A DNA stretch of 44,616 nucleotides from a virus (lineage: Duplodnaviria > Caudoviricetes): positions 1 to 44,616 of IMG/VR virus record IMGVR_UViG_3300043220_000052. One strand, given 5' to 3'. Under the pieces are notes generated by a model that was not told the origin of the DNA, ran no database searches, and saw only the letters and a program-made list of their open reading frames with translations. Made by a program: the position numbers and the translations under genes. Below are positions 14,494-30,720 of this stretch, in pieces (the first letter of the stretch is position 1; every line of letters begins with the position of its first letter).

Positions 14494-14660
14494 CTGACGA
14501 ACAACTGCTGCGCGAGGCAAACGAGGCGCTGAAGCTCGCAGATAACTGGCTGCCGCTAGTTCCCGAAAAGCGGCTTGGCAGCCTTTTGAGCCGCACGCAG
14601 GTCATCGTGATCGGGCGCACGGTCACCGCCAAACTCGAAGAGCGCCTACTGAATGAATGA
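14490..14660 (+). CDS. hypothetical protein
   Basis: ATGA overlap start. Confidence 0.55.
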   Translation: MTDEQLLREANEALKLADNWLPLVPEKRLGSLLSRTQVIVIGRTVTAKLEERLLNE

Positions 14661-14731
14661 GTGGATTCCAGCGGACACATCCGATTCGACTAGAGCGTCA
14701 ACCGTGGACGGGAAGAACAAGGAGGAAGCCA

Positions 14732-15256
14732 TTGAGTGAATGGACAGGGGTAGTCGTAGCCAAGAGCGAGAACGGAATCAAGGTTATCGATAAGGGCAAG
14801 TGGCTGAACTGGAGCCTACCGGACTATCGCGGCACACCGTTTGATTCCAACGTCAAGGCGGGGGACAGGGTGCGTATCGAGTATTCCGAGGTTGAGAAGA
14901 ACGGCGAGAAGAGGACGTACATCTCCGTTATCGAGAATCTGAGCCGTCCGCAAGCCGACGCGCCACAGGTGCCAGCCCAGCCGTTCCCGTCTGACGATCC
15001 GCCGTTCCCGCCAGATGATGAAATGCCGTTCCCGCCAGAGTCAAGCAGCTTCCCCCCAGACGCGCCAGGATTGCCGTCAGAGGCCCCTGGGCAGGACTTA
15101 TGGGCAAAGGATAGGTTAAGAGCGCGGACGGACTGTATCGCCTGTGCGACGGGGATATTCAAGTCCTGTTTGGAGGCGGGGATATACAAGGAGTTCCCGT
15201 CACCGGAAACAGTGGTAGATTACGCCGCCACGTTAGAGCTGTGGGCGAAAGAGTGA
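14732..15256 (+). CDS. putative single-stranded DNA-binding protein (OB-fold, Pro-rich linker, helical C-terminus)
   Basis: AGGAGG RBS before TTG 14732; OB-like VKAGDRVRIEY...YISVIE; PFP repeats. Confidence 0.55.
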   Translation: MSEWTGVVVAKSENGIKVIDKGKWLNWSLPDYRGTPFDSNVKAGDRVRIEYSEVEKNGEKRTYISVIENLSRPQADAPQVPAQPFPSDDPPFPPDDEMPFPPESSSFPPDAPGLPSEAPGQDLWAKDRLRARTDCIACATGIFKSCLEAGIYKEFPSPETVVDYAATLELWAKE

Positions 15257-15804: not shown

Positions 15805-16065
15805 GTGAGCGATACACGCCTCACAATCGAGAACGCCGAATACTACCTATTGAATAGGTCTCCTGGCGGCATCACAATCCATGACCCGCGCCAACTCACG
15901 CGGGCTTGTCTAGGCGGAAAGCAAATTAACCCACGGCATTGGTTCCGTGTTCCGCGTTCGTCTGTCAATGGTGAAAGTGAAGACGCATATCTCTACGGTT
16001 GTGGATTCTGTTGTCGCGGGCATGAAATGCTTTACTGGAACGGTGAGTTGATGCCCGATGGCTAG
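15805..16065 (+). CDS. hypothetical protein (H...C...C..C)
   Basis: GTG start 15805; overlaps the next gene. Confidence 0.55.
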   Translation: MSDTRLTIENAEYYLLNRSPGGITIHDPRQLTRACLGGKQINPRHWFRVPRSSVNGESEDAYLYGCGFCCRGHEMLYWNGELMPDG

Positions 16066-17374
16066 CGTCACCCGAACCCCCGCCTGCACCGTCAAGGGCT
16101 GCCCGGCGCCGCGTGATCCTGACTGGCACGTCCCCATCTGTGGCCACGGACTAGAGGGCCATCACCACCACGTCATCAAACGCTCTCAGGGCGGCAAGGA
16201 CGGGCCGCAGGTGTTCATCTGCCCCGACTGTCATCACAACATAGACAACGGCGAGTGGGGCAACGCAGCGAAACACGTCCCTGGTCGGGGGTTAGTCTAC
16301 TTCGCCTGGGACTTGCACGGGAACACGCTGATAGAGAAGGAGGTGATGCCCAATGCCGGACGAACACCCCATAACATTGACCAGCGGGAGGTAGGGCGGG
16401 AGTCTGGTCTAGTTCTGAGTGACGGTGCTGAGGCGGGAGGACGGACTCCCGATAGCATTGCTACAATTCATTCCGTTTACAACGAGGCGGATTCTTCGGC
16501 ACCGTCACCCAGCGCTGGAGTCCTGAGTGATGGTGCTGAGGGGGGCACGGCGGGCAGTACTGCTGAGCATTCGACCGCAAAGGGGCAGGGTAATGCGCCT
16601 GCTAGCCAGCAGCGACAAGGGAAAGGTTACGTGACGCACAATATCCTCGCGGACTTGCAGTACGTTCATGGGCAAGGCCGAGAAGACGAGGAGACCCCTT
16701 CGGCACCGTCACTGAGCACTAAGGAGGAAAGCGATGGAGAACATGATCTTTCCGAAGCCGAAGGCGAAACTGCCGCCGTGCTCAACGGAAAAGCGCCACA
16801 AGTGGGGCAGCACAATGGAGGCGACGAACGAGAACTACGGGGAGGAGACGACGGTGGTGTCGCGCTTGTGCAGAAGATGCCTCCTAATCCAGATTCATTA
16901 CGTGGTGGTGAGCTAACCCACGAGCAGCGCGTCGCCATCGCGCAGGAAATCCACGATACAGAGTGGAATCGTCAGTGGTTCGCCGGAGACACGGGCAATC
17001 TGTGGATAGAGCAGCTAGGCGAGAGCGCGGAGCAGTATCTGAGCGACTTCGGTTACGTCCACGAATCGTTAGCGAACATCCTGAGAGTCTGCGCGGCGAT
17101 ACCGCCAGCATATCGAAATGGGAATCTTCGGTTTTCCCATCACGTGGTCGTCTACGACGAGAACCTTGAGGACATGGAGATGCACCTGGCTGAGTGCGAA
17201 GAGAAACAGTGGAGCGTGGCCGAGTTTCGCCGTCAGCGGAAGGGGACGAAGAAGAAGGTGAAGCGGTGGAGCCGCGAGGAGCTAGTGGCCGAAGTAGGGC
17301 AGTTTCTAACCGGGCGGGACGTCTACACGGAAGCTCTCGACTCTTTCCTTGACTGGCTGGGGGAGCAAGCATGA
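16058..17374 (+). CDS. HNH endonuclease-like N-terminus, long overprinted linker, LmbU-like C-terminal domain
   Basis: HHHVIKRSQGG...ICPDCHHNID (HNH); QWFAGD...SLAN..RV...R..NLRFSHH...WSV.EFR resembles the LmbU family. Confidence 0.7.
   Translation: MASVTRTPACTVKGCPAPRDPDWHVPICGHGLEGHHHHVIKRSQGGKDGPQVFICPDCHHNIDNGEWGNAAKHVPGRGLVYFAWDLHGNTLIEKEVMPNAGRTPHNIDQREVGRESGLVLSDGAEAGGRTPDSIATIHSVYNEADSSAPSPSAGVLSDGAEGGTAGSTAEHSTAKGQGNAPASQQRQGKGYVTHNILADLQYVHGQGREDEETPSAPSLSTKEESDGEHDLSEAEGETAAVLNGKAPQVGQHNGGDERELRGGDDGGVALVQKMPPNPDSLRGGELTHEQRVAIAQEIHDTEWNRQWFAGDTGNLWIEQLGESAEQYLSDFGYVHESLANILRVCAAIPPAYRNGNLRFSHHVVVYDENLEDMEMHLAECEEKQWSVAEFRRQRKGTKKKVKRWSREELVAEVGQFLTGRDVYTEALDSFLDWLGEQA
16353..16394 (+). 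CDS. 13-aa peptide MPDEHPITLTSGR nested in an alternative frame
   Basis: Preceded by the full-length SD AAGGAGGTGAT (16337-16347). Confidence 0.35.
   Translation: MPDEHPITLTSGR
16411..16516 (+). ncRNA. structured RNA cassette 1 (23-bp closing helix around three hairpins)
   Basis: 16411-16433 pairs with 16494-16516 (21/23 pairs including 3 G-U); internal CGGGAG/CTCCCG, TAGC/GCTA and TCCGTTT/AGGCGGA hairpins. Confidence 0.6.
16519..16720 (+). ncRNA. structured RNA cassette 2 (same closing helix, ~150-nt nested cargo)
   Basis: 16519-16544 pairs with 16695-16720 (24/26); internal CGGC/GCCG, GTACTGC/GCAGTAC, CCGC/GCGG and GCAGG/CCTGC helices. Confidence 0.6.
16734..16916 (+). CDS. 60-aa C-H-W/CxxC micro-protein nested inside 16058-17374
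   Basis: TAAGGAGG RBS; C...HKW...CRRC Zn-type pattern seen in other micro-ORFs of this genome. Confidence 0.6.
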   Translation: MENMIFPKPKAKLPPCSTEKRHKWGSTMEATNENYGEETTVVSRLCRRCLLIQIHYVVVS

Positions 17375-18605: not shown

Positions 18606-18943
18606 TGGCAACCTACACTGACCAGCTCTGCGTCTGCTGCGGCGAGACGGCGAAATGGCCGCTCAGGGGCTATAGGGGTATGGAGGTTAGGTGCGACGAG
18701 TGCCGCCGCGTGTGCTACAGGGGTAGGGATGGGCCATGTCTAAGAGACGGCAAAGTGTCGGAAGAAACAGACGGAATAGGGTGGCGACAGGAACGAATAG
18801 CGGCCCTACAACACGAAGAACGCGATGGGCTGTTCAAACTGCGCCAAGAAGGACTCACTTACGCAGCAATAGGTAAAAGGGCAGGCGTTTCCCGCCAAAG
18901 GATTCATCAACTCATCGGCAGCGTTCCGAGGGGGAAGAGTTGA
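18605..18943 (+). CDS. Zn-finger plus sigma-4-like HTH protein
   Basis: CVCC...CDEC; EGLTYAAIGKRAGVSRQRIHQLI. Start uncertain. Confidence 0.6.
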   Translation: MATYTDQLCVCCGETAKWPLRGYRGMEVRCDECRRVCYRGRDGPCLRDGKVSEETDGIGWRQERIAALQHEERDGLFKLRQEGLTYAAIGKRAGVSRQRIHQLIGSVPRGKS

Positions 18944-18972
18944 CCCCCGCCAAGAGCCGCAACGGCATTGAA

Positions 18973-19080
18973 TGTGATAGAATACTAGCGTGGGAGCGTA
19001 GCCTTAATCGCGTCAGCAAAACTGAAGAGAACCGCTCAGTCGCTACGTTCCCACGGAATGGCTGGGCGGTTTCTCTTTTC
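18973..19080 (+). promoter_or_regulatory. extended -10 promoter and attenuator-like leader upstream of the initiator
   Basis: TGTG-A-TAGAAT at 18973-18983; helix 18989-19002/19042-19055 competes or pseudoknots with terminator 19024-19041/19060-19078. Confidence 0.65.
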
Positions 19081-19092
19081 CAGGAGGGGCCG

Positions 19093-19404
19093 GTGAGTAT
19101 CCGAATAATGTCTGCGATTTGGGAAGAGGCCGATGTCAGCGGGGCTAAGTTACTCGTGCTGTTAGCCTTGGCCGATTATGCCAACGATAACGGCATCTGC
19201 TGGCCTGGCGTCGAGGCGCTGGCGAAGAAGGCCCGCGTGTCGGAAAGGTACGTACGAGAATTGCTTGGAGGATTAGAGAGCAACGGCTACATAATCCGCG
19301 AATTGAACACCGGCCCTTATGGGGTGAATACCTACAAAGTTCTAGTAGGGGGTGCTAAATTAGCAGGGTGCGAACCGATACCCCTGGGGGGGTACGACAA
19401 TTAG
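19093..19404 (+). CDS. phage replication initiator, N-terminal winged-HTH only (103 aa)
   Basis: MSIRIMSAIW...AKLLVLLALADYANDNG.CWPG...LAKK...SER.V...L..LE..GYI...N.Y motif; AGGAGG RBS before GTG 19093. Confidence 0.8.
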   Translation: MSIRIMSAIWEEADVSGAKLLVLLALADYANDNGICWPGVEALAKKARVSERYVRELLGGLESNGYIIRELNTGPYGVNTYKVLVGGAKLAGCEPIPLGGYDN

Positions 19405-19490
19405 CACCCTAACCGTCAACAAGAACCGTCAAGTGCTTTTGCATCCTCTTTATGACTTATAGGAACTATAACGGTTGGGGTGCGAAATGG
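19340..19490. other. putative replication origin (iteron-like repeats plus AT-rich tract)
   Basis: GGGTGC(T/G)AA at 19350, 19366 and 19478, inverted at 19401; AACCGTCAA at 19411 and 19424; AT-rich 19436-19471. Lambda-like placement in and after the initiator gene. Confidence 0.55.
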
Positions 19491-19512
19491 CGCATGTCGT
19501 GATAGGAGGCGA

Positions 19513-19713
19513 ATGATGAAGATACACCGTTGGCAACCTACAGGATTCACGCCCTGTGGCCGACCGCTCGAATCCGTTGTGTGGAACGAGGACGAGATGT
19601 TGCAGAAGGGCGTCACTTGCTTGGTTTGCAATTGTGCCAACACGCTCTCCTCGCTTTTCCCGCCACGCCCGCACCCCATCAAGGAAAAGCCCTCGGTACA
19701 AGCCGGGGGATGA
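19513..19713 (+). CDS. hypothetical Zn-binding protein (H..CG...VTC..C)
   Basis: AGGAGG RBS before ATG 19513. Confidence 0.6.
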   Translation: MMKIHRWQPTGFTPCGRPLESVVWNEDEMLQKGVTCLVCNCANTLSSLFPPRPHPIKEKPSVQAGG

Positions 19714-20458
19714 CGGAAGATTCTTAGTCCTGGCGGTTTTGGCCGTACTGATTGGAGGGACGAATGCACTACCTACTGCTTCACAAGAGGCATGGAACGG
19801 AGGAATGGCTGTTACTGAAGGAGGGTTCTGCGCAGACTATACAGAGCTTTCTCAAGAGGAATGGTTGCCGCAAGGAGGAGGATTGGCGAGTGATTGCATG
19901 GGAGGGCGAGTGCAAAGTCGAGAAGTCAGCGAAAGACGAGCTGCCGACGTTCTACACGTGCCGGTAGATGCGCGCCTTGTTCCGCTGGCTACACTTCCGT
20001 TGCCCCCATCAGGACGTGGACAGGTTGCCGCCGCCGGAGAGCTTGGCGATATATCTGGCAATAGGGCGCAGTTGGACGGAGGACTGGATTCGGGACTTCC
20101 GCAGGGGGCGACTGTCCGTTCGGGCGACGTTGGAGCAATACAGGCTGTCCTCCCCTACGTCACAGCCCCCACAGACACCTACACCCGATTCTTCGAGGGA
20201 TACCGCGACGCTGGCGGCCAGGACGAAGAGAGAATCGACGCGATGATATGGTGCGAGAGTTCATGGACTATCGACCCAGGCGGGTTCTTCTTAGGGCTCG
20301 CTCAGTTCGACCCTGGCACGTGGGCAACCGTGTCGGCCATCACTGGGTACACGGACTGGCGCGATCCGTTCAGTCAAGGATTCAACGTGGCTGTGTGGGC
20401 GTCGATGATTCGTCCGGGGACGAGCGCAGGCTGGCCGCATTGCTGGTGGGCGCGATGA
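19556..20458 (+). CDS. membrane-anchored Rpf/lysozyme-like lytic transglycosylase (start uncertain)
   Basis: TM segment FLVLAVLAVLIGG; C-terminal MIWCESS...GLAQF...TW...DP......GWPHC. Confidence 0.7.
   Translation: MADRSNPLCGTRTRCCRRASLAWFAIVPTRSPRFSRHARTPSRKSPRYKPGDDGRFLVLAVLAVLIGGTNALPTASQEAWNGGMAVTEGGFCADYTELSQEEWLPQGGGLASDCMGGRVQSREVSERRAADVLHVPVDARLVPLATLPLPPSGRGQVAAAGELGDISGNRAQLDGGLDSGLPQGATVRSGDVGAIQAVLPYVTAPTDTYTRFFEGYRDAGGQDEERIDAMIWCESSWTIDPGGFFLGLAQFDPGTWATVSAITGYTDWRDPFSQGFNVAVWASMIRPGTSAGWPHCWWAR
19764..19967 (+). CDS. hypothetical protein nested in the transglycosylase linker
   Basis: GGAGGG RBS; globular-looking composition. Confidence 0.5.
   Translation: MHYLLLHKRHGTEEWLLLKEGSAQTIQSFLKRNGCRKEEDWRVIAWEGECKVEKSAKDELPTFYTCR
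19968..20246 (+). CDS. hypothetical protein nested in the transglycosylase linker
   Basis: Starts immediately after the previous stop (TAG-ATG). Confidence 0.35.
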   Translation: MRALFRWLHFRCPHQDVDRLPPPESLAIYLAIGRSWTEDWIRDFRRGRLSVRATLEQYRLSSPTSQPPQTPTPDSSRDTATLAARTKRESTR

Positions 20459-23299: not shown

Positions 23300-23512
23300 A
23301 TGTGCTGGATTCTTCTGGGAGTCATCATGGCATGGGCAGAGACGGTGTACAGTCAGTCGCAGTCAACTGCAACTGTCGCGCCTGATGCCCCCGACGCGCC
23401 GCTCCCTGAGCCACCTGACTTCTACAAGGCCGAGCCCGCCGTACTGGAAGCCGAGCCAATCTTCCGGGGCCGCAGCACCGCCCGCGCCATACCTGACGGC
23501 AGGGTGGTGTAA
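23300..23512 (+). CDS. hypothetical Pro-rich protein (start 23300 or 23327)
   Basis: ORF after an extended -10 TG-C-TACAAT (23264-23272) and a hairpin. Confidence 0.45.
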   Translation: MCWILLGVIMAWAETVYSQSQSTATVAPDAPDAPLPEPPDFYKAEPAVLEAEPIFRGRSTARAIPDGRVV

Positions 23513-26735: not shown

Positions 26736-27124
26736 CGTACACAACTGGGATGGTGCGGGGCTACCTCTGCAACTACCAGGAACGCGCCATGCACGCCCGC
26801 CCGCCCCAGAGAGACGACAAGCTGGCCGTCAGGGTGCCCCCCTTGGAAGAAGCCCCGTATGCGGCGTCTAGCTGCGTCTGGTCGGACATTGAGCAAGCGA
26901 TGCGAAACTTGCCGTTCAACTGGGAGAAGATCACCTTCGCCGTGCTGTGTTTGGGTGGGGGGAAAGAGGGGACGAGCTGGCGCAACGGAATGTCAGTATA
27001 CAACTGGCGGGAGAAGGTCGGCGACTTCTGGGGACTCACGGCTGGGGACGTGAACAGGATAGTGAAAGACGCCATCCAGGAAATGACTGACTCACTGAAC
27101 GGCGTCGCGGTCACTAACGGTTAG
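26732..27124 (+). CDS. putative late-transcription regulator (sigma region-4/RinA-ArpU-like)
   Basis: DIEQAMRNLP...KVGDFWGLT...VNRIV..AI..M...LNG; last gene of the early operon. Confidence 0.55.
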   Translation: MTYTTGMVRGYLCNYQERAMHARPPQRDDKLAVRVPPLEEAPYAASSCVWSDIEQAMRNLPFNWEKITFAVLCLGGGKEGTSWRNGMSVYNWREKVGDFWGLTAGDVNRIVKDAIQEMTDSLNGVAVTNG

Positions 27125-27357
27125 GGTAGCCCAGCGACTTCGCGGAGAATCGCAACGAAACCACATCCGCAATCACGAACGCCAGGGGCATGATGTTCAA
27201 GGATACACGTCGAATGATGCTTGCCGTATTCCATGAACGCCTCTTGTATCTTGGTGTGGGCAATGCGGAGGCGGATAATTTCTTTACCTCGACTCATTTC
27301 ACGCTCGGTCATGCCCTCGTGCGCTAGGAGATTCGCCCTGGTTTCTTCAATATCCAT
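27121..27357 (-). CDS. hypothetical protein (H...C......C.CG)
   Basis: GGGAGGTG RBS. Confidence 0.65.
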   Translation of the reverse strand: MDIEETRANLLAHEGMTEREMSRGKEIIRLRIAHTKIQEAFMEYGKHHSTCILEHHAPGVRDCGCGFVAILREVAGLP

Positions 27358-27399
27358 TTGACACCTCCCGTTTCTGGTGATACGCTTCTATGGTACGAT

Positions 27400-27429
27400 G
27401 AGCGTCCTGTACGGGGCGCTCTATTTGTT
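27400..27429 (+). terminator. hairpin/terminator for the rightward transcript
   Basis: GAGCGTCCT-gtac-GGGGCGCTC (G-U pairs on the + strand), then TATTTGTT. Confidence 0.4.
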
Positions 27430-27513
27430 CCTCCCGAACAACCACCAGCACCACAGGACAAGTAGAAACACTGTGACGGGCCAAACAAGTACGGCAACGT
27501 ATTCTAGGATCAT
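27421..27513 (-). CDS. 30-aa hydrophobic membrane peptide (MILEYVAVLVWPVTVFLLVLWCWWLFGRNK)
   Basis: GGAGGG RBS; single TM helix with basic tail. Confidence 0.55.
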   Translation of the reverse strand: MILEYVAVLVWPVTVFLLVLWCWWLFGRNK

Positions 27514-27537
27514 TTTGATTCCCTCCATGACGAAATG

Positions 27538-27756
27538 CTAGGACTTTAGTCCGCAGGCTGTTAGGAAGTCGGTTCGGTTGAATCCTGAGCGGTATGTGCC
27601 ACAGCCGCCTGGGCATGGTCCACCTGGGTTGTCGGCGGCGAAGAGGTCAGCGAAAGCTCTGACTATATCATCTGTCACAACCATAGCCGTTGTGTAGCCT
27701 CCATGTTCCAACAGTATCTTGGCCACGTCCTCGTAATGCTCGCTCTGGTACTTCAT
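27538..27756 (-). CDS. hypothetical protein (FADLFAADNP...FNR..FL.AC family)
   Basis: AGGGAG RBS; motif recurrent among phage early genes. Confidence 0.7.
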   Translation of the reverse strand: MKYQSEHYEDVAKILLEHGGYTTAMVVTDDIVRAFADLFAADNPGGPCPGGCGTYRSGFNRTDFLTACGLKS

Positions 27757-27762
27757 CGCTCC

Positions 27763-27927
27763 CTACTTACTCAGCATCCACGCAGCGAGGGCTACGGTAG
27801 CGAACACCCAGATGGCCGTATGAATGGTCCGGCGCAGGTTCTCGCGCATCTGAGCGCGTCTCCTGACGTTCCTGGCCTGCTGTCGGCGGGCGCGGCCTAA
27901 GTCGCGGAGCATGTGTTCGATCTTCAT
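27763..27927 (-). CDS. 54-aa basic protein with C-terminal TM
   Basis: AAGGAG RBS; hand-translated. Confidence 0.55.
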   Translation of the reverse strand: MKIEHMLRDLGRARRQQARNVRRRAQMRENLRRTIHTAIWVFATVALAAWMLSK

Positions 27928-27963
27928 TAGTTCTCCTTCTGGGGCTAGCTGGCCCCTACTCGA

Positions 27964-28275
27964 TTAGGACTGCCACAAATCGCTTGGCGGGAACATGGGA
28001 TTTTCCACTGTATGTACTCGGCCACCGACACAAGCGCGGGGGTTCACGGGGCAGCCATAGGGGTCGCGGCTATTGATTTCTGTGTCTATCTGGCCTTCTT
28101 CAGTGGGGTGGCTGTTGTAGTTGAGTGGGCCTAACCTTAGCCCGTCTTGGTGGTGTACCCACAGGTAGCGGCCATCTGTTACGACTAAGGGCATCTGTGA
28201 ACGCTTATGGGCGCAGGGCGGGCCGATCTTCGAGGTGCAGCATTTCCATTCTTGTTGCGGGCCTGCATTTGCCAT
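27964..28275 (-). CDS. hypothetical protein
   Basis: AAAGGAG RBS before ATG 28275. Confidence 0.6.
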   Translation of the reverse strand: MANAGPQQEWKCCTSKIGPPCAHKRSQMPLVVTDGRYLWVHHQDGLRLGPLNYNSHPTEEGQIDTEINSRDPYGCPVNPRACVGGRVHTVENPMFPPSDLWQS

Positions 28276-28279
28276 TTGC

Positions 28280-28402
28280 TCAGTCTCCTTTCTTAGTCTG
28301 CCAGTAAGGACTTTGGCACCTGGGGCAGCATCTAGGCAGGGTTTCCTTACGGCGCACCCAGGATTTGTCACAGCGTAGGCAGGTTAGGGTAGGGAGCTTC
28401 AT
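28280..28402 (-). CDS. 40-aa Zn-ribbon protein (TCLRCDKSWVRRKETLPRCCPRCQSPYW), paralog of 13103-13225
   Basis: GAGGAGG RBS, ATGA overlap with the upstream gene. Confidence 0.75.
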   Translation of the reverse strand: MKLPTLTCLRCDKSWVRRKETLPRCCPRCQSPYWQTKKGD

Positions 28403-28692
28403 TTCGCCTCCTCAATAGCGATACGGGCCTGTTGCCGATCCTTTGGATGAAGGTTGCCCCAGTTGTTGACGATCTTCTTCAGCGCTTCTAGTAGGGCAGG
28501 GGCGGCGGCGATGAGGCGGGCGTTGGCCTCGCAACGTGCAGTGAAGTCATCATATTGTGCATCATGGTGCTGATTGACGGCTATTCGGATGGCGCAGACT
28601 TCGCCACCGGCACGGCTCCAAATTTGGTGGCCTATGAAACCATTCCCATCATCACCGAATTGGGCGATTTCCCACGGGCCAGGTGTATGCAT
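28399..28692 (-). CDS. hypothetical protein of the HTPGPW...ANARLIAAAP.LLEAL phage family
   Basis: Recognisable motif; GAGGAG RBS. Confidence 0.8.
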   Translation of the reverse strand: MHTPGPWEIAQFGDDGNGFIGHQIWSRAGGEVCAIRIAVNQHHDAQYDDFTARCEANARLIAAAPALLEALKKIVNNWGNLHPKDRQQARIAIEEAK

Positions 28693-28721
28693 TGCTCGTC
28701 TCCTCTCTATGATGAAATGGG

Positions 28722-28910
28722 CTAGGCGATGCCGAGTACGTTCTCCGCTGCGAGCAAGTCTTCTAGGAACAGGAGACGTTTCCGGCGTCGGCTTGACGTC
28801 CTCATTATGCGCTGCACAGACTGCATTTGCTCTGTTGTTCCGGCAAGGGCTGCTACCCGGATAGCCTCAATGCGTTCAACCTGGCTATCGGTTAATTCAA
28901 TCTCTGCCAT
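28722..28910 (-). CDS. hypothetical protein, first gene of the leftward operon
   Basis: TAAGGAG RBS before ATG 28910. Confidence 0.65.
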   Translation of the reverse strand: MAEIELTDSQVERIEAIRVAALAGTTEQMQSVQRIMRTSSRRRKRLLFLEDLLAAENVLGIA

Positions 28911-28935
28911 GTCCCTACTCCTTACTACTAACATC

Positions 28936-28975
28936 TACACCCCTATGTTATACACCCATGATTAGAGCTTGTCAA
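28936..28975 (-). promoter_or_regulatory. near-consensus sigma70 promoter TTGACA-N17-TATAAC with TACACCC direct repeats
   Basis: -35 at 28975-28970, -10 at 28952-28947; TACACCC at 28936 and 28951. Confidence 0.8.
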
Positions 28976-29028
28976 CCCCCAGGCTAGATAGAGAAGATTG
29001 CAATGTTTATCACAAAGGACATTTCGTA

Positions 29029-29433
29029 ATGGCAGCTAGCAGAGGCATGGAGCCGTATCCAGTGGACATCAAGGCGGAAGCGATAGCGCTTGTCTACGAG
29101 ACTGATAACTTTCATGAAGCCGCTAGACAGATGGCCGAACGCTACCCTGAGCGTAGCCCACGCTTCTCTAATATCATCCGCTGGTTTAAGAAGCTAGACC
29201 CGGAGAGGTGGGAGGAGATGGGTGAAGAGAGGGAAGAGGCGTTCAAGGCGGGGATTATGGAGATGGGGATGAAGGCCCAGGAACGGATGATGACGGTCTT
29301 AGATACCCTCCCCGACAGCCAAATACCCGTCACTGCTGGCATCTCTATGGACAAGCCTATAGAGCTGCTGAAGCTCCAGAAGGGTGGAGGCAACCAGATG
29401 AACGTGCAGTTTAACCTGGTGACCCGTGAATAG
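29029..29433 (+). CDS. putative terminase small subunit (N-terminal HTH)
   Basis: Y..DIKAEAIAL...EAARQ HTH, helical middle, GI.MDK..LL motif; upstream of TerL. Confidence 0.5.
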   Translation: MAASRGMEPYPVDIKAEAIALVYETDNFHEAARQMAERYPERSPRFSNIIRWFKKLDPERWEEMGEEREEAFKAGIMEMGMKAQERMMTVLDTLPDSQIPVTAGISMDKPIELLKLQKGGGNQMNVQFNLVTRE

Positions 29434-29828
29434 CTGGCATCAACTGCTCATGCTCAACCTAGTGGAGGCGCAACACCTGCACTTGTCCAAGCGCCCGCTC
29501 ACTTCGTACGACTGGATGGTGCTGTGCGCGCTGGCTGACAATGTTAACTCTCCTAGGCATGTAGAAACAAAAGGCACCGACACCCTCACGTCCACGTCAG
29601 TACCTTAGTTGCGTAGGTTCACACAGCCCATGACCCGTGCGAGTCTATGCATAACAAGTGTCAAGCATGTATTCGTATCTGGGGTTAGTTGACCTAAGAC
29701 ATATAGTGCGAACCAAGGGACGGGTTCCAATGTCGCTCGTTGTGGTATACCTCTAGGGTATCAACCCCCAGACGCGGCCCCGTATCTGGACTATTGACAT
29801 AATGCCTGTTTGTAGATAGGAGGACAAC

Positions 29829-30008
29829 ATGAAGGTAGAAGTGTATTACCTGGGCAGCTTAATAGACGTGGACACGTACGAGGGGGAGCACATCGACTGG
29901 ATGATGAATGATAAGCAGCTCACTATCTACGTGGGTACGAAAGAGGAGGTCGACAGGGTGGCGTCTTACCCAGAGAGTCGGGTAGTTAGAGTGAAGGTCG
30001 TTGAATGA
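29829..30008 (+). CDS. 59-aa hypothetical protein
   Basis: AGGAGG RBS, ATGA coupling. Confidence 0.6.
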   Translation: MKVEVYYLGSLIDVDTYEGEHIDWMMNDKQLTIYVGTKEEVDRVASYPESRVVRVKVVE

Positions 30009-30250
30009 ACCCACGCACACAGCTAGTCAGGCACCGAGAGCTAAAGGCTCAAGGGATGTCAGGACTGGAGGCTTCACGGGTGGTGCTTCAGGAGGCGGGG
30101 ACGTTGGGTGTTACACAAACCGTTACACAGCACGGTGTTACACCCGCTGAGAACGTGAAAGTGTGTAACGCCTGCGGAAAGAAGTTCTCAAGTCGTGGGG
30201 CGACCTGTAACGCGTGTCGCCAGCGGGCCTACAGGGGAAGGAGCAAATAG
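30005..30250 (+). CDS. Zn-finger protein (CNAC...CNACRQRAYR) containing GTTACAC DNA repeats
   Basis: Translation plus DNA repeats at 30107-30211. Confidence 0.65.
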   Translation: MNPRTQLVRHRELKAQGMSGLEASRVVLQEAGTLGVTQTVTQHGVTPAENVKVCNACGKKFSSRGATCNACRQRAYRGRSK

Positions 30251-30720
30251 ATGGATTCGGTAACAGTCGTGCTCGACCGCTGGATTAACTTGGAGGGGTC
30301 GTGGGCGCGAGCCTGGAAAGAGCATCAGTACGAGTTGGTGCGGATGTACCAAGAGCAGAAAATCCGTGACCAAGCGAGGAGCAGGGGATGAGCAGGTTGT
30401 TGTGTAAATTGGGGCTGCATAAATTTGACTCTAGTGAGCGCAGTTGGCCCGTGCCTAATCCTGGGCACATTATCTATTTCCACTGTGGACGCTGCCAGAA
30501 GACGATAGGGCACGACCACGGGAAGACGGGCTACGTCCAGAAGGTATACGGAGACAGCTAGTTTTAGGGAAGGGAGCAAGGGATGAAAATGCTACCGCTA
30601 CACAGGGTTCTCCATCTATTCGGTTGGAGCGATGCCTGGATGCCGATGGAGTGGGAAGGGAACGTCTTGACCGTATGCGGCAGGTGCGGGCATCGCCGCT
30701 AGGGAGCGTTCCATCACGAA

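Follow-up and report, generated by a model that had tools for sequence, protein, structure and literature searches.

The window, by which we mean the whole stretch of 44,616 bases analyzed here, is a complete virus record and represents a phage genome, with genes for a terminase, an amidase, a DNA methylase, a replication initiator, and a RusA-like resolvase. One of its open reading frames (ORFs), here called the host ORF, contains the features collected in Table 1. In the AlphaFold model of the 438-amino-acid protein that it encodes, the N domain and the C domain are confidently modeled, and pLDDT is below 50 over most of residues 100 to 271. The host ORF has a PHROG HNH match with an E value of 0.0048, and HNH PF01844 was detected in 17 of 59 aligned family members. 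For the C domain, the best PDB matches are ParB DNA-binding domains at an E value of 0.005, with none at or below 0.001, and LmbU-like clusters are its structure-based neighbors. The protein has 116 database homologues (117 proteins including the query), and the named ones have marine sediment metagenomes as their source. From the HNH motif to the joint at the C domain, the distance varies by locus between 88 and 231 amino acids. At least three types of N domain occur in the family, and the C domain after the joint is exchangeable, with an MT-A70-like methyltransferase and other helical domains found there (L258:1195-1600, P0104, P0043, and P0107).

Table 1. Features of the cassette array and associated elements (positions are those of the window unless a locus is named)
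Feature	Position	Strand	Description or evidence
Host ORF	16058-17374	+	438 aa; HNH-like N domain, disordered linker, helical ParB-HTH/LmbU-like C domain
Possible upstream mini-cassette	16337-16394	+	Putative; Shine-Dalgarno-like site, 13-codon +1-frame ORF (16353-16394); motif recurs in some relatives
Linker with cassette array	16355-16870	+	About residues 100-271, predicted disordered
Clamp 1 left arm	16411-16433	+	Sequence, fold, covariation
Insert 1	16434-16493	+	60 nt; two firm hairpins, weak middle one; z -3.7 alone
Clamp 1 right arm	16494-16516	+	Sequence, fold, covariation
Clamp 2 left arm	16519-16541	+	Sequence, fold, covariation
Insert 2	16542-16697	+	156 nt; first 60 nt in family shared with L148
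Clamp 2 right arm	16698-16720	+	Sequence, fold, covariation
Overprinted small-gene cassette	16722-16916	+	Shine-Dalgarno site about 16722-16728; 60-aa Cys-rich +1-frame ORF 16734-16916
Conserved joint	16912-16924	+	+1 ORF stop codon, C-domain start; C-domain exchange at or just after
Weak homologue of second clamp-bearing gene	23300-23512	+	No clamp; tblastn E 0.019 over 19 aa, similar position
tRNA genes overprinted on linker	L148:780-957; L149:1628-1727		ARAGORN, RF00005

Several other features of the window were recorded. The Pro-rich tail of an SSB-like gene (14657-15256) contains an exact 15-nucleotide direct repeat with 24-nucleotide spacing (15001-15039). The replication-initiator-like ORF at 18940-19404 is short (154 amino acids) and has an N-terminal HTH only. 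After 19404-19556 comes the next ORF (19556-20458); a 2.7-kb contig of G329 encodes a relative with 66% identity to its product. Over 27000-30700, a stretch that has short ORFs on both strands and separates the lysis region from the terminase region, GC skew and AT skew flip sign or flatten.

Within the linker lie two tandem units, in each of which a left arm and a right arm pair around an insert; we call the paired arms a clamp. A first-pass annotation of this DNA had listed the four arm positions, a 2-nucleotide gap between the units, and arm offsets of 108 and 204, all of which we confirmed on the sequence. It had placed the units next to an HNH domain, but they are inside the HNH ORF (16058-17374). 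The helix that it had put at 23 to 26 bp is present and is 23 bp long, with two mismatches in its outer part. A 15-nucleotide arm pattern has four exact matches in the whole window, all at the array; with up to three mismatches allowed, there are 24 matches versus a shuffle mean of 8.65, and 0 of 100 shuffles reach 24. On the plus strand, the predicted fold consists of the two clamped units (-146.8 kcal/mol; z -4.6). The minus-strand fold is weaker (z -2.4), and DNA parameters give a z of -3.2. Alternative pairings can be drawn between the right arm of unit 1 and the left arm of unit 2 and between the two outer arms, but the minimum-energy fold favors two separate units. A contig from run X1, a possible source of the window, covers 16407-16745 with zero differences from it.

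We found no promoter-like or terminator-like site on the plus strand within 16340-16760. An Rfam search of the window and L139 gave chance-level matches only, no Rfam family was found for clamps or inserts, and tRNA alone passes the gathering score, among the relatives. The view that the array is neither CRISPR nor a recognized tRNA or ribozyme held up: the arms are inverted and alternate, the inserts are 33 to 156 nucleotides long, no Cas family was matched, no tRNA gene was found in the window itself, and no Rfam ribozyme was matched. Hammerhead, HDV-like, SAM-II, fluoride, c-di-AMP, SRP, and tmRNA candidates were rejected on core motifs that did not fit and the lack of an Rfam match. Before the first clamp is an optional element (16337-16410) with a ribosome-binding site resembling the gene's own start region; in some relatives it has a G-rich stretch closed by a short stem, and its folding is not above shuffles.

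The two inserts of the window differ in how well they fold. The four-way junction once proposed for insert 1 is weakly supported because its middle hairpin is the part that varies in other runs; variants there differ at 16457-16469 and 16480-16483, differences near contig ends being unlisted. By eye, its first loop could pair alternatively with 16472-16477. At the protein level, insert 1 has relatives in P0038 and P0107. Insert 2, for which nested helices had been noted, folds on its own no better than shuffles (z +0.5). Only its first 60 nucleotides have a relative, in L148, and compared with that relative the hairpin at 16584-16603 shows a G-C to U-A double change. A scan with the pattern of this hairpin gave nine matches, none with clamp or insert context.

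We retrieved the DNA of 33 loci (L138 to L170) by C-domain peptide patterns; L152, a duplicate of L139, was left out, and the sources examined were the window plus 32 loci (n = 33). Three loci from a separate retrieval were repeats of L141 to L143. The C-domain joint is present in 31 of the 33 sources. The N domain lies in the same open frame in 21 of these 31, the frame is open to the contig end in 8, and the N-domain pattern is unmatched in 2, where 102 and 177 codons are open upstream.

Among these sources we identified 26 distinct DNA clamps, all on the coding strand, and a detector blind to pairing recovers the same 26. The minus-strand rows of that detector are second readings of these elements, and one second reading stayed in the sets of 27 and 19 used with it. 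When they are aligned, 93.2% of 572 cells are paired, compared with 85.7% in shuffles and 31 to 60% in slid controls, and 8 of 22 pairs change on both sides, a level reached by 0 to 1 of 500 shuffles; because the copies share ancestry, independence is overstated by the shuffle controls, and what is being counted is a few arm types and not 26 separate events. The core 15 bp of the clamp (390 cells) comprises 330 Watson-Crick pairs, 51 G-U, 5 A-C, and 4 other. With all 23 positions included, the bias drops to 71 G-U against 25 A-C, since 16 of the 26 clamps retain an A-C mismatch at outer position 8. Compensated arm changes alter the encoded residues; selection is therefore on pairing and not on the protein. 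The earlier claim that the common stem is kept as plus-strand RNA thus finds its support in the covariation and in the excess of G-U over A-C in the core. G-U wobbles are tolerated in single-stranded DNA hairpins too, which is a point against our main model. Selection on an RNA helix is well supported, and we are highly confident that the helix exists at the RNA level.

The 26 inserts fall into 15 lengths between 33 and 156 nucleotides, all of them multiples of three and free of stop codons. The kept frame points to translation through the linker. Of the 117 proteins, 81 have the translated arm-pair motif once and 7 have it twice (one of these is false), and in the other 29 it was undetected; the count was made without a negative control, and some of the 29 show arms by eye. 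With the false match removed, tandem clamps with different inserts occur in 6 of the 117. These motif counts, together with the 26 clamps and the insert families, bear out the expectation that unit number and insert vary while the arms covary. At the protein level only, P0077 and P0085 have an HNH_3 (PF13392) homing-endonuclease-like domain in frame within the clamp region.

We sorted the inserts of 27 copies (the 26 plus L258) into 16 families, with more at the protein level. Matches between inserts were on the same strand in 20 of 20 cases (0 of 20 reversed). One family has five members, in whose alignment 98.5% of cells are paired. Of 19 conserved 5-bp pairings, a pseudoknot alone has double changes; there are two of these, both from one sequence, L159. 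In a second family, L258 has a U-A to G-C swap and L160 an exchanged hairpin, and at least three insert families have compensatory changes within the insert. Folding was better than shuffles (z < -1.64) for 5 of 25 inserts, with a mean z of -0.85 on the plus strand and -0.51 on the minus strand, and many short inserts may be filler.

Three complete tRNA genes lie in frame in the linker, tRNA-Ile(GAU) and tRNA-Ile(UAU) in L148 and tRNA-Leu(CAA) in L149 (ARAGORN and RF00005, 57.7 to 75.6 bits). The Ile(GAU) and Leu(CAA) genes have one common body with different anticodon arms and no encoded CCA. The Leu(CAA) gene is without a long variable arm, and the Ile(UAU) gene, which has a CCA, follows Ile(GAU). 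The GAU and CAA genes each sit on an extension helix of at least 8 bp, the 3' strand of which resembles the right arm. It follows from these in-frame tRNA genes that the array holds real RNA genes. A further five proteins (P0034, P0036, P0076, P0094, and P0109) appear to contain a tRNA-like stretch between full arms. A match to YrlA, a Y RNA (E value, 0.53), straddles two tRNAs and was rejected as a Y RNA.

The linker contains a second class of cassette, consisting of a strong Shine-Dalgarno site, a start codon, and a +1-frame ORF of 23 to 60 amino acids. These small genes have a ribosome-binding site in common, and the stop codon of all 25 falls in a copy of the joint (16912-16924). Hydrophobic products number 20 and Cys-rich ones 5, the latter including that of the window (16734-16916), among counts in which the L155 ORF repeats that of L139 and the L166 ORF repeats that of L164. 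The window ORF has a relative in L163. Two +1-frame ORFs stand in tandem in L149 and again in L159. Up to three +1-frame start motifs occur per protein (P0010 and P0082). The linker thus has three readings, namely a protein, overlapping small genes, and RNA. The first-pass annotation had recognized the RNA units of the linker and had missed both the +1-frame small genes and the probable role of the arms as exchange joints.

An unrelated small gene, located upstream of the amidase, also contains the clamp, again in frame (L142:16074-16352 and L143:15905-16204). Eight of 23 homologues of this gene are filled, and three of their inserts belong to families also seen in the HNH gene. In another homologue of the small gene, P0253, there is an in-frame tRNA-like stretch without a clamp. 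This second setting bears on the proposal that the RNAs partner the HNH/LmbU-like protein. We found no support for such a partnership, in that the clamp also occurs in the unrelated small gene, persists where the C domain has been replaced (L258), and is undetected in 29 of 117 family proteins.

Arms and inserts combine in several ways. One insert family is found with three arm types, and in L166 a left arm of one type and a right arm of another surround the insert that has matched arms in L164. In L258, the N domain, clamp, and joint are kept and the C domain is different. Contigs of three other runs cover the arms heavily and most of insert 2 not at all. Overall, contigs of other runs favor arms and joints far above insert 2, and several of them join an arm to different sequence, although their short sides of low likeness may be from other organisms. 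This mosaic pattern fits what is expected if the arms are short homologies for exchange. Shuffling of the inserts is well supported, and we are confident that it takes place at the arms.

We propose the following mechanism. Upon transcription, each clamp would fold into a two-turn helix, and host RNase III would cut unit 1 at about 16429/16430 and 16499/16500 and unit 2 at about 16537/16538 and 16703/16704. The predicted products are RNAs of ~70 and ~166 nucleotides with 2-nucleotide 3' overhangs, and the cut would leave a new 5' end ~18 nucleotides before the ribosome-binding site of the +1 gene. The full HNH protein would come from uncut transcripts, and the frame would stay open for that reason. 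The released RNAs, the tRNAs, and the small proteins would form an accessory kit, most likely directed against host defense or competing phages, which homologous recombination at the arms and joints would shuffle between related phages. By analogy, the payload could consist of decoy tRNAs, aptamers, and small membrane proteins acting against defense or superinfection.

The steps of this mechanism differ in strength. A two-turn helix with conserved letters in its outer part is an RNase III substrate. The invariant arm positions score 5.7/8 (left) and 5.0/8 (right) against the weak cleavage consensus of E. coli RNase III, as excerpted from PMC4357697; this is the best of 10 registers, with two arms that are not independent and no significance test. 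The fit is only suggestive. Cutting would also destroy the message of a protein whose frame is kept open, which counts against the main model. On balance, we lean slightly toward an RNase III-type cut at the clamp. The inserts would then presumably be released as small RNAs, and their action in trans seems to us evenly balanced. The full model, from RNase III-type cut through insert release to insert swapping via the arms, we regard as having as much for it as against it. A more ambitious version, possible but held only tentatively, is that one DNA stretch serves as a protein linker, as small membrane or Cys-rich +1 genes, and as a rack of RNase III clamps, a triple-coded exchangeable payload; the clamps would release tRNAs and structured RNAs, some of them pseudoknotted, and these would be decoys or ligand sponges against host defense, traded via the clamp arms.

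The clamp might instead be a cis-acting element for mRNA processing or stability that keeps down the amount of full-length HNH protein and releases the small gene downstream, its loop being mostly tolerated filler in which tRNAs and structured RNAs are occasional arrivals. RNase III sites are known in phage SP82 early mRNA, according to passages of PMC4838370. In many loci, the right arm closely precedes a ribosome-binding site, the inserts can be as short as 33 nucleotides, and 20 of 25 do not beat shuffles, all as this explanation would have it. However, the clamps of L153, L160, and L167 have no small gene after them, the tandem clamps with different inserts (6 of 117 proteins) would be redundant, and inserts of at least three families contain compensatory changes. 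We consider a cis-acting role with mostly neutral inserts rather unlikely.

A clamp that is never cut could be a folding insulator, or a handle to which a phage or host protein binds (the HNH/ParB-like protein is one candidate), and would present its insert within a long transcript. The strictly kept frame fits an uncut message, and the invariant arm positions could be a protein site. But helix length and arm pattern fit RNase III, the C domain resembles ParB domains that bind DNA, and the clamp is present in another gene too and alongside N and C domains of several types; we find an uncut scaffold improbable.

We also give little credence to the idea that the arms are DNA-level ends of a nonautonomous mobile element (MITE, Correia, or RPE-like), or sites for a site-specific recombinase on single-stranded hairpins, with the RNA fold as a by-product. 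Such an origin would account for the terminal inverted repeats, the in-frame insertion at two loci, the filled and empty alleles, and the folding of the region as DNA too (z -3.2), and passages of PMC10969869 describe in-frame insertion of RPEs and RNase III cleavage of Correia stems. Against it, a flanking duplication directly outside the 23-nucleotide arms measures at most 1 nucleotide in 27 of 27 copies, and six whole phage records have only one or two clamp sites per genome (a seventh has no clamp). The ends vary with compensation around an unrelated interior, insert matches are 20 of 20 on the same strand, and no integrase, transposase, recombinase, or Cas family was matched among the 52 ORFs of the window. 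The dispersal of arms in either orientation that the first-pass annotation had named as grounds for rejecting its RNA reading was not seen, all copies having one orientation. Finally, that the units are intron-like, excised from the mRNA with the flanks rejoined, is very improbable: a long terminal helix does surround a variable interior inside a coding sequence, but 26 of 26 inserts are stop-free multiples of three, which an excised intron would not need, the pair table contains no bulge-helix-bulge, and Rfam gave neither an intron nor a ribozyme match.

Relatives were also sought more widely. A single-protein locus search of viral contigs and an alignment search of GTDB genomes found none, and GenBank phages had no match for the C domain or the amidase and only chance-level DNA matches. 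Scans with single arms gave 137 loci, 4 of them with both arms within the set limits. The sole genome match of the two-arm pattern, L174, was a chance match in a chromosomal gene without a clamp and was discarded. Amidase relatives are present in 21 of 401 genomes of the class of G006 (Dehalococcoidia), with a best E value of 2e-42 in a comparison confined to that one class; G250, one of the 21, enters this tally only. Bacterium HR24, unclassified in NCBI, is the source of the top-ranked amidase homologue with an organism name. Three longer genome stretches around amidase relatives had no other window gene and no clamp. In the same class, the short matches inspected from a DNA search of 401 genomes included none that was spacer-like, and a covariance model of one insert family plus arms, run without a positive control, matched 0 of 151 genomes. 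There is a weak hint that the host belongs to the Dehalococcoidia; G006 carries an RNase III gene and is not established as the host.

If the preferred RNase III model is right in its cutting step, the clamp would be a natural, portable RNA expression scaffold. The exchange, as modules, of tRNA genes, structured RNAs, and small genes overprinted on a disordered linker is an uncommon means of carrying accessory functions. Gene callers would overlook the overprinted array, reporting a single hypothetical protein. Because the clamp shows where otherwise unrecognizable RNAs begin and end, it yields a catalogue of candidate phage small RNAs (16 DNA-level families), which can be tested as anti-defense decoys or aptamers. 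Searches of the accessible full-text literature found no description of the clamp element. We could not find the combination of features described, and the individual parts each have known analogues.

Among known systems, the Rickettsia palindromic and Correia elements, as treated in passages of PMC10969869, are palindromic units that lie in frame in unrelated genes and have terminal stems that RNase III can cut, with a conserved interior and many dispersed copies. The clamp shares the terminal inverted repeats of MITEs and of these elements, but its interior is variable, it has one or two sites per genome in one orientation, and it lacks target-site duplication. A shufflon has both orientations beside a recombinase gene; here, 0 of 20 insert matches are reversed, and the 52 ORFs include no recombinase. 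Phage tRNA clusters reportedly include tRNAs that counter defense nucleases. They resemble the array in being phage encoded, and two of the tRNAs in L148 and L149 have one body and a different anticodon arm; the tRNA genes here differ in being overprinted in frame on a protein linker, some with an extension helix. The dicBF operon of the Qin prophage is said to make a small RNA and small proteins from one phage transcript, with DicF processed by RNases. It has, in contrast, a single fixed sRNA, no repeated clamp, and no exchangeable array.

Two further systems were compared. In the PeSL cassettes of T4-type phages, according to PMC2839356, short repeated regulatory sequences serve as recombination joints that shuffle small accessory genes, each PeSL being a promoter plus terminator between genes. 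The clamp scored as neither promoter nor terminator, no sigma-70-like promoter or terminator stem-loop was seen on the plus strand within 16340-16760, and the clamp is intragenic with its RNAs in the loop; the mosaic pattern and the chimeric arm pair of L166 are what repeats acting as recombination joints would give. RNase III processing stems, such as those of phage early mRNA, resemble the clamp in being helices some two turns long that contain G-U pairs, have mismatches toward the outside, and close a larger interior; a ribosome-binding site often follows shortly downstream. The clamp differs from these stems in lying inside an open reading frame and in having at least 16 exchangeable insert families, and its cleavage is predicted. 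T7 R sites and rRNA precursor stems are further RNase III processing stems. A double-stranded RNA helix of ~20 bp or longer, typical of such stems, is present here at 23 bp and is kept by covariation. Taken together, these comparisons suggest that the nearest functional counterpart of the clamp array is an RNase III processing stem with a second role as a recombination joint.
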